From IMG/VR virus record IMGVR_UViG_3300000944_000005, positions 46,039-110,038 of that record: a stretch of DNA of 64,000 bases; one strand, given 5' to 3'. The translations under genes and the position numbers were made by a program. Source of the stretch: a virus. Of the stretch, positions 28,741 to 32,341 are shown one piece after another. The notes beneath the pieces are model-generated. The model did no database searches and was not told the origin of the DNA. It saw only the letters and a program-made list of their open reading frames with translations. How positions within the stretch are numbered: the stretch's first letter is position 1; each line of letters starts with the position of its first letter.

Positions 28741-30354
28741 GTCACAATGCACAAAGCCCATTGTAGGCTGTTGAGTGCGAACGCATGCTGTCACAATGTA
28801 CAAAGCCCACTGTAGGCGTTGAAATCACAACGGGTGTCAGATACGCTGTCGTCACAATGTACGAAGCCCACTGTAGGCTGTTGGGATCACCCGCATTCTT
28901 GTCACAATGTACGAAGCCCATCGTAGGCTGTTGAGATCCAACTAATTTGAAGTCACAATGTACGAAGCCCACTGTAGGCTGTTGAGTCTCGGAGTGATGC
29001 TGTTACAAGGGTCACAATGTACGAAGCCCACTGTAGGCGTTGAATCTATTATAGCTTGTCCTTGCCGGTCACAATGAACTAAGCCCATTGTAGGCTGTTG
29101 AGTCACGGAATGGCCACAGTCACAATGTACGAAGCCCACTGTAGGCTGTTGTTGTCGCTCCCTTTCGTCACAATGTACAAAACCCATTGTAGGTGTTGAA
29201 CCTGTTAACTACGAGTCACAATGTACGAAGCCCATTGTAGGCTGTTGTCAATGATGGGGAACCAACTGGTCACATCAAACTAAGCCTGATGTAGGCTGTT
29301 GAGATCATTCGCATTCCGTCACAATGTACGAAGCCCACTGTAGGCTGTTGAGGTAGCGTGAGTCCGCTATCGTTCGACCCACTTTTGACCGAGTCACAAT
29401 GAACTAAGCCCATTGTAGGCTGTTGAGTCGCGGAATGGACGCTGTCACAATGTACGAAGCCCATTGTAGGCAGTTGTGTTAGTTATTTCAGTTTGATGTA
29501 CGAGTCACAATGTACGAAGCCCGTTGTAGGCGTTGAGATAATTGTTTCTTGATGGTCAACGGTCACAATGTACGAAGCCCACTGTAGGCTGTTGGTATCA
29601 GTCCGTCGCACCGGTCACAATGTACGAAGCCCATTGTAAGCTGTTGGCATCACTTAATGGCCGTCACAATGAACGAAGCCCACTGTAGGCTGTTGAGGGT
29701 CAACGCATGCTGTCACAATGTACGAAGCCCACTGTAGGCGTTGGTTTCATTCGGGCCACGTCACAATGTACGAAGCCCACTGTAGGCGTTGGTAGTACTG
29801 AAGTCAAGCATGTCACAATGTACGAAGCCCACTGTAGGCGTTGAGTACTCAATTGCCCAGGTCACAATGTACGAAACCCATTGTAGGTGTTGAATGAATA
29901 GTCACCCCAAAATAGTCACAATGTACGAAGCCCACTGTAGGCGTTGAGATCCAACTAACTCTCGTACTGTCACAATGTACGGAGGCACATTTGAAGTCAC
30001 AATGAACTAAGCCCATTGTAGGCTGTTGAGACTTCAGGTGTAATACTTAATACCAATAACATCTGTCACAATGTACGAAGCCCACTGTAGGCGTTGAATT
30101 TTTGAATTGTTTTCGCCAGTTGGTTACAATGTACTAAGCCCATTGTAGGCTGTTGAGACTTGGTTGAAGATGGCGCCCACAACGTAGTCACAATGTACGA
30201 AGCCCACTGTAGGCGTTGATATTCTGCGACTTGCACAGTCACAATGTACGAAGCCCACTGTAGGCTGTTGACTCAATCGATTCTTTTTGGTGCCCACTCA
30301 ATTACAGGCACACCATCGTCACAATGTACGAAGCCCACTGTAGGCTGTTGAGAC
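28741..30354 (-). CRISPR. CRISPR array: 29 full repeats plus 1 truncated repeat (29969-29981), spacers 15-47 nt
   Basis: Plus-strand core GTCACAATGTACGAAGCCCACTGTAGGC(T)GTTG; likely full minus-strand repeat GTCTCAACAGCCTACAGTGGGCTTCGTACATTGTGAC. Stem AGCCUA/UGGGCU forms only on the minus strand (U.G wobble versus C.A mismatch), which is the same strand as the adjacent cas gene. Confidence 0.95.
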
Positions 30355-30379
30355 CCTACCAGTTCAACCTGGTAGGGTC
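30352..30379. other. perfect 11-bp hairpin abutting the cas-proximal repeat
   Basis: GACCCTACCAG-TTCAAC-CTGGTAGGGTC. Confidence 0.7.
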
Positions 30380-30430
30380 ACACAGTTATAACCATTATTT
30401 ACTAACTTATGTTAACGGTACTTGTCGATT

Positions 30431-32341
30431 TTAGCGACGTTTTGCTTCTGCGAACTCCGTATAAGGAACTGCATCAGGTATCCGCGATAACATAATGTTC
30501 GCGGCGTTGATGTCTTGATCAACTGTGTAGGTACAATGTGAGCAATGATACTCAAGTTTAGCCGAATCCCAATCTTCCGTAACCTGTCCGCAGGTCGAAC
30601 ACGTACGAGTCATGTTGACAGACGTGACAACACTCACATTACTCTGACCGAAAATTTCTACGGCACATTGACGGAGTAAACCGGGAGAAGCGATCCTCGC
30701 TAGTCGCCGTTGGTTAGCCACCAACACAACTTTCTCGTCGTCTTTCTCCTTCTTCCCGAGCGTAGCCCAGTTTGTAGAGTCCACAATCAAATGTGTGTAA
30801 CGACCGGACAACCTGCGTAACCAATCACGGTAAACATGTTTACGATTGCGTATCGCTTTCTTATTGATAGAAGCAGACTCTTGTAAGATATGCCGATCCC
30901 ACGATCGCCAAAATTCCATGATACCAAACACAGTTTGTATGTCGGATGGGTGACGTTTTCTTCTAACTGCAGGGCTATTTAACTTTGACTCTGCCCAAGG
31001 TAGTGAGTTAGTAAAGAACTGCGCTGAAGTTTCAGTATCCATCACAAACCGATTATCTCGCCAGAGTTCTACTGTTCGATATAACGATTCTGGAGATTGG
31101 TGACTAGCTAGTGTCTGAGTACGTTCAACCAACCATTCAGGTACATCGATACTGGCTAACCAGTCAAGGAATTCACCTCTTATGATGTTGAACCGATCGG
31201 CGCGAATTCCTTGTAACGAATCTGGTCTAGAGAATCGGCGAAGTTTATCACTGGATAGAAATAGTTGACTAACTTGCTGCGTAGCATCCATTACTGTGGC
31301 ACACCGTAACTGTTCATCAATCATGCGATGACCCAGGTGTAACACACAGGTATTGGATTTATCAACTGTCGAAACAACATCATCAACTTTGATTGTGAGT
31401 CGTATCTCCCAGTACTCCTTTTTACCCACACGTTTCAGATGTGCGAACCCATCAATGATTTTCGCACTTGCGGGGAAGTCACGATGATGCACATAAGGGA
31501 AAGTAGCAAATACAGGATTACCGTCGTCGTCACGGCACACGAGGAAACGTATTGTACCTTTCGCAACCTCTCCGCGATCTTGACCAATAACAAGTCGTTC
31601 GCTCCCTGGTGGGATGTGGATGTGTAGAATTTCAGAGTTGTTTTCCATTACTGCAGCTACTGGTTTACCTCCTTGAAACCTTACTCCGATAGCTCCACTA
31701 CCTTCCCAACGACGGAACTTAGGCGGTGGACCTTTTTTGTAAGTTTTTTCCGCAATCTGTTCCATGATTCTGGAGGTACCCCAGTAAACACCAGATTGCT
31801 GTCGCGCAATTTTAGCTTCACGTGCGTGGGCTATTTGTCCATCATCTAAACCGGCTTCCTCCACCAGTTCAAAATAACGCACCTTTCGCTGACGCTTTAA
31901 CTGAGACTCAGTTTCATCAGCTAACTGAGTGATCTCCTGGGCAGCTTGATCTTGATAAACCTTATGTGCATCTCGAATCAATTTCTTCGCAACTTTGTAT
32001 GCGGCATCTAGTTGTGCGATCGCTGTTTTTCTTACAGCTTTGGCTTGATTGATTCTAGCTTTTTGTGAATCAGTAGGTTCATGACGACGACGAGCTCGTT
32101 GACGTGAAAGACGTAAATCTTTATAGGCCTCATCAAGTTCGGCAACTGCCCGATCGTAGATTGTTACAGCATCTGCGTAAGCTGGGCACAAAGATGCAGC
32201 TAACGTTTTGTAAGTAGCACGCCGATTATGCTCTAACTCGATTAATTGATTACGGTAGCGGTGGTTGAGTAAGATTTGATTCTTAACCGCTGCAACATTT
32301 GTTGGTTCTTCAGAACGGTACACCCAGTTAATCACTGGCAT
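30431..32341 (-). CDS. cas12m: type V-M (V-U1/C2c4) CRISPR effector Cas12m-like, with non-canonical RuvC
   Basis: 636 aa, adjacent to the array. Motifs match those recalled for Cas12m: long Arg-rich coiled coil, YWGT, RRWEGSGAIGVRFQ, VHHR, RuvC-I VLHLGHR (D to H), RuvC-II IVDST (E to D), SPGLLR, TRTCSTCG...CSHC zinc ribbon and RuvC-III DQDINAA. Confidence 0.85.
   Translation of the reverse strand: MPVINWVYRSEEPTNVAAVKNQILLNHRYRNQLIELEHNRRATYKTLAASLCPAYADAVTIYDRAVAELDEAYKDLRLSRQRARRRHEPTDSQKARINQAKAVRKTAIAQLDAAYKVAKKLIRDAHKVYQDQAAQEITQLADETESQLKRQRKVRYFELVEEAGLDDGQIAHAREAKIARQQSGVYWGTSRIMEQIAEKTYKKGPPPKFRRWEGSGAIGVRFQGGKPVAAVMENNSEILHIHIPPGSERLVIGQDRGEVAKGTIRFLVCRDDDGNPVFATFPYVHHRDFPASAKIIDGFAHLKRVGKKEYWEIRLTIKVDDVVSTVDKSNTCVLHLGHRMIDEQLRCATVMDATQQVSQLFLSSDKLRRFSRPDSLQGIRADRFNIIRGEFLDWLASIDVPEWLVERTQTLASHQSPESLYRTVELWRDNRFVMDTETSAQFFTNSLPWAESKLNSPAVRRKRHPSDIQTVFGIMEFWRSWDRHILQESASINKKAIRNRKHVYRDWLRRLSGRYTHLIVDSTNWATLGKKEKDDEKVVLVANQRRLARIASPGLLRQCAVEIFGQSNVSVVTSVNMTRTCSTCGQVTEDWDSAKLEYHCSHCTYTVDQDINAANIMLSRIPDAVPYTEFAEAKRR

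Follow-up and report, generated by a model that had tools for sequence, protein, structure and literature searches.

Related and fused guides in the miniaturised array of a predicted phage type V-M CRISPR locus

The closest described relatives of the locus analysed here are the type V-M systems of MmCas12m2 (PMC10442227), GoCas12m (PMC11013384) and PmCas12m (bioRxiv 10.64898/2026.03.26.714355). In the PmCas12m crRNA, ~33 nt come from the repeat and 17 nt from the guide, whose first 12-14 nt are mismatch-intolerant (bioRxiv 10.64898/2026.03.26.714355), and MmCas12m2 forms a 17-bp heteroduplex (PMC10442227). Type V-M systems work without a tracrRNA and process their own pre-crRNA; their effectors recognise a TTN/YTN PAM and bind DNA without cutting it. 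A phage-borne V-M locus is present in myxophage MV-1 (bioRxiv 10.64898/2026.09.14.751636); the accessible part of that report describes a Cas12m with a D-E-D triad and an array of eight spacers, without cas1 or cas2 and with no protospacers found, and mentions neither miniaturisation nor guide families. CRISPR arrays are generally read as records of capture, and in ordinary arrays the candidates for duplication, counted where spacers are almost identical, make up about 3% of spacers (PMC11472070). Viral mini-arrays, reviewed together with phage systems directed against host defence (PMC11656645), hold one or two full-length spacers and borrow the effector of the host.

The stretch of phage DNA analysed here (64,000 nt, hereafter the window) belongs to a record that is one linear sequence of 155,625 nt, ~75% complete; among sequencing data, an algal and a marine metagenome study represent it best. 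The locus has the effector fold and size of the known V-M systems, their stem-plus-pseudoknot repeat, an array placed right after the effector and a functional unit of ~50 nt, with the H-D-D RuvC triad of MmCas12m2. It differs from these systems in its lytic-type phage context, in units that have the size of a mature crRNA (~72 nt in most relatives), and in that about a third of its guides are related by descent, all of them diverged. Like MV-1, it combines a phage Cas12m with an array for which neither cas1/cas2 nor protospacers were found. Like the viral mini-arrays, it would carry virus-borne guides against hosts or competitors, but its 29 short units are accompanied by an effector of its own, and targeting of kin was not detected in two kin phages. 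Duplication and rearrangement of spacers in ordinary arrays (PMC11472070; PMC4524480) probably share the mechanism at work here, slippage or recombination between repeats; in the window, however, ~34% of the units are related and no two are identical, and one guide joins two spacers into a fused sequence that no target ever contained. The initial annotation had called diversification inside an array unusual, which applies to the high share and to the divergence of every copy, but not to duplication itself. Both the misalignment of repeats and the type V-M system are already known; no description of a miniaturised phage array with a third of its guides as diverged or fused relatives was found in the literature searched. 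The components of the locus are as follows.

28741..30354, minus strand: CRISPR array, 29 whole repeats and one truncated repeat (polarity from relatives L001 and L004)
29269..29301, minus strand: repeat variant; three adjacent base pairs of its stem are changed in a compensatory way
30349..30382, minus strand: leader hairpin, a 14-nt inverted repeat reaching into the 5' end of the first repeat
30431..32341, minus strand: Cas12m-like effector, 636 aa
H335/D521/D610 of the 636-aa effector: putative RuvC triad, from alignment to 8HHL and 23VW
C581, C584, C600 and C603 of the 636-aa effector: putative C-terminal zinc finger

The effector gene lies upstream of the array on the same minus strand, and the array follows directly. 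The 636-aa protein matches PDB 23VW (E 7e-37) and 8HHL (E 8e-16) by phmmer, and the top four Foldseek matches of its predicted model (pLDDT 88) are all Cas12m, with TM up to 0.67-0.71. By these two comparisons it is predicted to be a single Cas12 effector of ~600 aa with a Cas12m fold, as in type V-M, and its aligned RuvC residues suggest the non-canonical H-D-D triad. The adjacent stem-plus-pseudoknot repeat is also a feature of type V-M. On sequence and modelled structure, the locus is therefore assigned to phage type V-M (Cas12m, RuvC H-D-D), and its carrier is taken to be a marine phage with a predicted non-cutting Cas12m. No close full-length Cas12m relative was found for this effector, the best identity being 31-38%; the single named relative, at 31%, comes from Schlesneria (Planctomycetota), and a planctomycetotal host is a guess based on that protein. 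The 155.6-kb record yielded no cas1, and in a tracrRNA check neither the repeat nor its complement recurred elsewhere in it (20 nt, up to 4 mismatches allowed).

TIGR-Tas systems feature a Nop-domain Tas protein, alternating edge and loop repeats and two 9-nt spacers; such a system was ruled out here by the Cas12-type effector and the single class of repeat. As a check for a diversity-generating retroelement, which would have a reverse transcriptase, a template repeat and adenine-specific changes, a crude scan for the YxDD motif returned one ORF of 270 aa, and the changes seen between strains (below) are not confined to A.

The full repeat measures 36-37 nt: the leader-proximal copy at 30318-30354 is intact at 37 nt, and relatives with the same polarity have repeats of 36 nt. 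The 5' 4 nt of the repeat are eroded in the window array, and comparison with these longer repeats indicates that the final ~4 nt of the apparent spacers are eroded repeat. As parsed, the spacers are 15-47 nt long (median 19.5). Units have a median size of 52 nt, 61% are no longer than 56 nt, and none of those between whole repeats is shorter than 48 nt. The unique spacers of uniform length that typify a canonical adaptive array are thus not seen here, about 10 of 29 being related. A median of 52 nt fits a crRNA of ~33+17 nt, and the array may have shrunk to what the effector uses, its minimum working size.

The repeat is predicted to form a stem of 7 bp and a pseudoknot of 3 bp, an arrangement known from the Cas12m crRNA. 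Pairing is kept in 99.6% of 280 cells, with two-sided, compensatory changes in 4 of the 10 base pairs, three of them in the single repeat at 29269 (0 of 500 shuffles are as good); the test took its structure from the consensus, and related repeats have changes in common through shared ancestry. Since the fold appears to be kept by purifying selection, the array is probably still used and its function probably kept. The 93-nt leader region folds at z -4.7, and in part of the strong hairpin at 30349-30382, which is situated between the cas12m stop codon and the first repeat, a repeat-end-like sequence pairs with the 5' end of that repeat.

Four similarities between spacers had been singled out in the initial annotation, and all are present. 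Spacers 28774-28789 and 29696-29711 have 10 nt in common, identical at the 5' end; 29101-29118 and 29426-29443 are identical in register at 14 of 18 positions; 28934-28951 has 12 nt in common with 29947-29968, plus 7 nt with 29989-29995; and 28884-28900 and 29302-29317 are identical at 12 of 16 positions, anchored at the 3' end. Because the last ~4 nt of the spacers are eroded repeat ends, shared tails are inflated. In an all-against-all comparison, similarity exceeded three nulls (p 0.001-0.01). Six pairs share a run of at least 8 nt, against 1.2 in shuffles and 1.4 in random phage DNA (p ~0.007), and five remain after a 3-nt trim of the 3' ends, against 0.8-0.9 expected. Against a column-permutation null, in which positional bias is preserved, p is 0.0002-0.013, and 0.0014 once the last 7 nt are removed. 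Shared 7-mers link nine pairs in sense and none in antisense (2.9 expected), and the best local score is 24.5, where shuffled sets average 19-20. Taken singly, no pair is very strong, the fusion described below excepted.

The related spacers fall into three families, A (28774, 29696, 28884 and 29302), B (29101, 29426 and probably 28985) and C (28934 and the block 29947-29995). The general statement that spacers of this array belong to related families holds for about 10 of the 29 units and was too broad as worded, about 19 having no clear relative. The first and fourth of the pairs are real, but they are not separate sets and merge into the four-member, in-register family A.

28774..28789, minus strand: family A, guide 1; 10-nt 5' identity with 29696-29711
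29696..29711, minus strand: family A, guide 2; also in strains X2/X3 and X4
28884..28900, minus strand: family A, guide 3; 7 of 9 positions in register with each other member, last 7 nt removed
29302..29317, minus strand: family A, guide 4; also in strain X4
29068..29152, minus strand: family B duplicate copy; guide 29101-29118 and rare repeat variant 29068-29100
29393..29477, minus strand: family B duplicate copy; guide 29426-29443 and rare repeat variant 29393-29425
28985..29010, minus strand: probable third family B member; guide 28985-29001, score 19.5 with 29426-29443
28934..28951, minus strand: family C fusion guide; 7+12 exact match
29947..29995, minus strand: family C two-unit block; spacer stub 29989-29995 (7 nt), repeat remnant 29969-29988 (20 nt) and spacer 29947-29968 (22 nt)

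Descent within the array is shown for two families, B and C, and family C is the clearest case. The fusion guide consists of the 7 nt of 29989-29995 and the last 11-12 nt of 29947-29968, with the intervening 31 nt missing and a 1-nt microhomology at the junction; its combined match of 19 nt compares with a maximum of 12 in 3000 permutations. The two-unit block 29947-29995 is spanned without differences by a strain contig (X1). The direction could equally be reversed, with the fusion guide as the parent and the longer block as the product of an insertion. In family B, the two 85-nt repeat-spacer-repeat copies, 29068-29152 and 29393-29477, are 93% identical, with four differences in the spacer, none in the rare repeat and two in the other repeat; the rare variant occurs in only 3 of the 29 repeats. 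Beside guide 28985-29001, a 6-nt remnant of a deleted repeat end is preserved at 29002-29007; like the repeat remnant at 29969-29988, it speaks for descent inside the array. Family A is without a descent marker. Over the whole set of similar pairs, linked repeat variants resemble each other no more than average (mean distance 3.1 versus 2.7), and the evidence from linkage therefore comes from one pair here and one in a second phage array (L014, below). The guide at 29744-29759 resembles family B (29101) in its 5' part and is in register with family A (29302) in its 3' part, and is a possible mosaic of the two.

The strain comparison used contigs of a second, independent study placed on the locus (depth 2-7x, one study). 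Five window spacers recur in these contigs, which also show new spacers, a different trailer end and a different apparent order of units, although that order may be chimeric across repeats. Strain X4 has 9 changes in the 29-nt spacer 28822-28850, with 6 differences in 557 nt of cas12m, and strain X2 has 5 changes in the 16-nt spacer 29744-29759, with 37 differences in 1560 nt of cas12m; these two variants were chosen for their high divergence, the greatest seen, and could represent paralogues that the window lacks. The remaining shared spacers differ little. Some guides are thus mutated between strains that are 97-99% identical, whereas the repeats retain their fold, and the variants show rapid turnover, not selection.

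Among the 19 arrays of the clade that were tested, most have units of ~72 nt and either no related spacers or identical duplicates only, and two are clearly miniaturised. The L012 array contains one diverged pair. A closer parallel is found in L014, which with L013 and L018 represents one phage sequence whose effector is 26% identical to that of the window. In its array 91% of units are short, and three pairs have diverged (p 0.001), one of them with a linked repeat type. The same kind of miniaturised array with diverged pairs is thus present in a distantly related phage. This array (L014:5770-7100, IMGVR_UViG_3300024243_000005) belongs to a 180-kb phage and has units of 47-48 nt; its repeats are very variable, with apparent compensatory stem changes, and no self-target was found for it. 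Another phage Cas12m array (L028:5790-7110) interleaves at least three types of repeat and contains seven consecutive units of 61 nt as well as an exact tandem duplicate. A search with the repeat pattern of the window returned only an unrelated metF-like match from metagenomes and nothing from viral contigs.

The fusion guide, the 85-nt duplicate with its rare repeat, the strain variants and the second phage together support the earlier proposal that guides are duplicated, recombined and diverged inside the array. New guides, some related and some fused, seem to arise within it, not solely by capture of foreign DNA. Most probably, this miniaturised type V-M array is a working one, and its guide families have arisen within it by descent. 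Since Cas12m uses only a ~33-nt stretch of the repeat and a 17-nt guide, the remainder of each unit, comprising the distal half of the spacer and the first 4 nt of the repeat, would be free to erode until units settle at ~50 nt. The traces left in the array show duplication of units or blocks by misaligned repeats, fusion of parts of neighbouring spacers by deletions, and an accumulation of substitutions. Family members differ within their first 14 nt, and under the seed rules of Cas12m such diverged copies would bind different DNA. Whether this divergence has been selected, through tracking of host variants, or reflects drift of redundant copies is close to evenly balanced. If the changes are selected, effectors for which 14-17 matching bases suffice would have a second way of gaining new specificities, and diversification within arrays could explain why the spacers of phage Cas12m loci are so often matchless in databases. 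On a further reading, the array has in some phages become an evolving guide library, largely without spacer capture, whose crRNA-sized units are duplicated, fused and mutated under positive selection, so that a non-cutting effector continues to silence changing host defence genes; such an RNA-guided anti-defence system, with guides that evolve like a gene family, is possible but doubtful.

It is unlikely that the families instead reflect convergent targeting, in which family members stem from separate acquisitions of, or from selection for a fit to, variants of a single motif (a promoter, operator, gene start or conserved coding motif) repeated in the host or in mobile elements. Such a motif would suit family A, with its in-register 5' core in four guides and no linkage marker, and a clade relative targets one host gene at two sites (below). 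On the minus strand of 28774-30317, 11 of 28 spacers have a TGA among their final 8 nt (3.6 expected), which would also be compatible with a shared target. This TGA often stands exactly three variable bases ahead of the next repeat core, as it does in three strain variants, and is anchored better to that repeat than to the 5' end of the guide; common ancestry, a processing signal and a target motif are candidate causes. Convergence leaves the fusion guide and the shared rare repeat unexplained.

In the target searches, PAM-flanked matches did not exceed expectation. The phage's own record showed no surplus of PAM-flanked near-matches, two related phages (terminase 71% and 60%) gave 4 matches against 5.2 expected, 40 Planctomycetia type I-C cas loci gave 8 against 8.8, and matches in rRNA operons were not above chance. 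The array had no match in phage and plasmid collections, for two long spacers IMG/VR gave no exact match of 20 nt, and 401 Planctomycetia genomes gave matches at chance level only; all these tests are weak, since the guides are short and the Planctomycetia genomes may not be those of the host. A proposed match of guides ending in ATGATC or GTGATC to cas8c start codons failed on 30 loci. The suggestion that guides address a repeated host operator or promoter motif was not borne out: of 301 Planctomycetia genomes, 3 contained the family A core with a TTN PAM (~2 expected), the genes concerned apparently being different ones, and the true host may differ. In the kin phage L121 (near 19634, G403), close to a gene start, 13 nt behind a TTT PAM match the leader-proximal guide 30271-30317; the match goes no further, and an unrelated gene contains this 13-mer with no PAM, so that it is probably due to chance.

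Neutral decay shares the descent mechanism with the preferred explanation and differs solely in denying function: an old array without an adaptation module would erode by slippage, with families as by-products and many guides targetless. The lack of cas1, the degenerate repeats, the truncated units and the failure to find targets are all compatible with this. In a related phage (L064:1-1237), moreover, the gene that follows the array, 93% identical in DNA, stands behind two other genes with no array, which places the cas12m-array cassette as absent from that site there, and no cas12m match was found in two kin phage records, one of them 31% complete. However, repeat pairing is nearly all kept, with compensatory changes, units between whole repeats never fall below the size that matches a mature crRNA, and the effector is intact in the strains, for which no cas12m indels are listed; decay without function is accordingly judged quite improbable. 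Chance combined with shared eroded repeat ends, or an assembly error, is very improbable, since the signal persists after trimming 3, 4 and 7 nt, a de Bruijn assembler cannot join a 1-nt overlap and five spacers recur in the independent study, even though shared tails are partly repeat-derived, shuffled sets attain local scores of ~20 and the fusion spacer and several others lie outside the coverage of the strain contigs, which is neutral either way.

If the array is indeed a working one, its guides may silence genes of the host or of competing mobile elements, and silencing of host defence is the likeliest job, judging from the Schlesneria relative. The cas12m gene of Schlesneria sp. T3-172 lies 30 kb from a terminase gene, and is therefore probably in a prophage. 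Comparison of its array (L051:6382-6483) with the host chromosome (L136:6300-6330 and L136:6961-6990) showed that two of the six spacers match the type I-C cas5d gene of its own host, one at the cas5d 5' end (14/14, PAM TTA) and the other across the cas5d stop and the cas8c start (27/30, PAM TTC). Both match PAM-proximally, over 14 and ~24 nt, and drift beyond, an intermediate stage expected before miniaturisation. The Schlesneria Cas12m and its two spacers are a candidate RNA-guided anti-CRISPR that would act by silencing. This case supports silencing of host defence for the clade, not for any guide of the window, and since the strain is cultured and has a complete genome, silencing of the host CRISPR operon by a prophage Cas12m is directly testable. 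No target was located for the first spacer of the Schlesneria array (L051:6091-6127), which starts like the T-arm of a tRNA gene.
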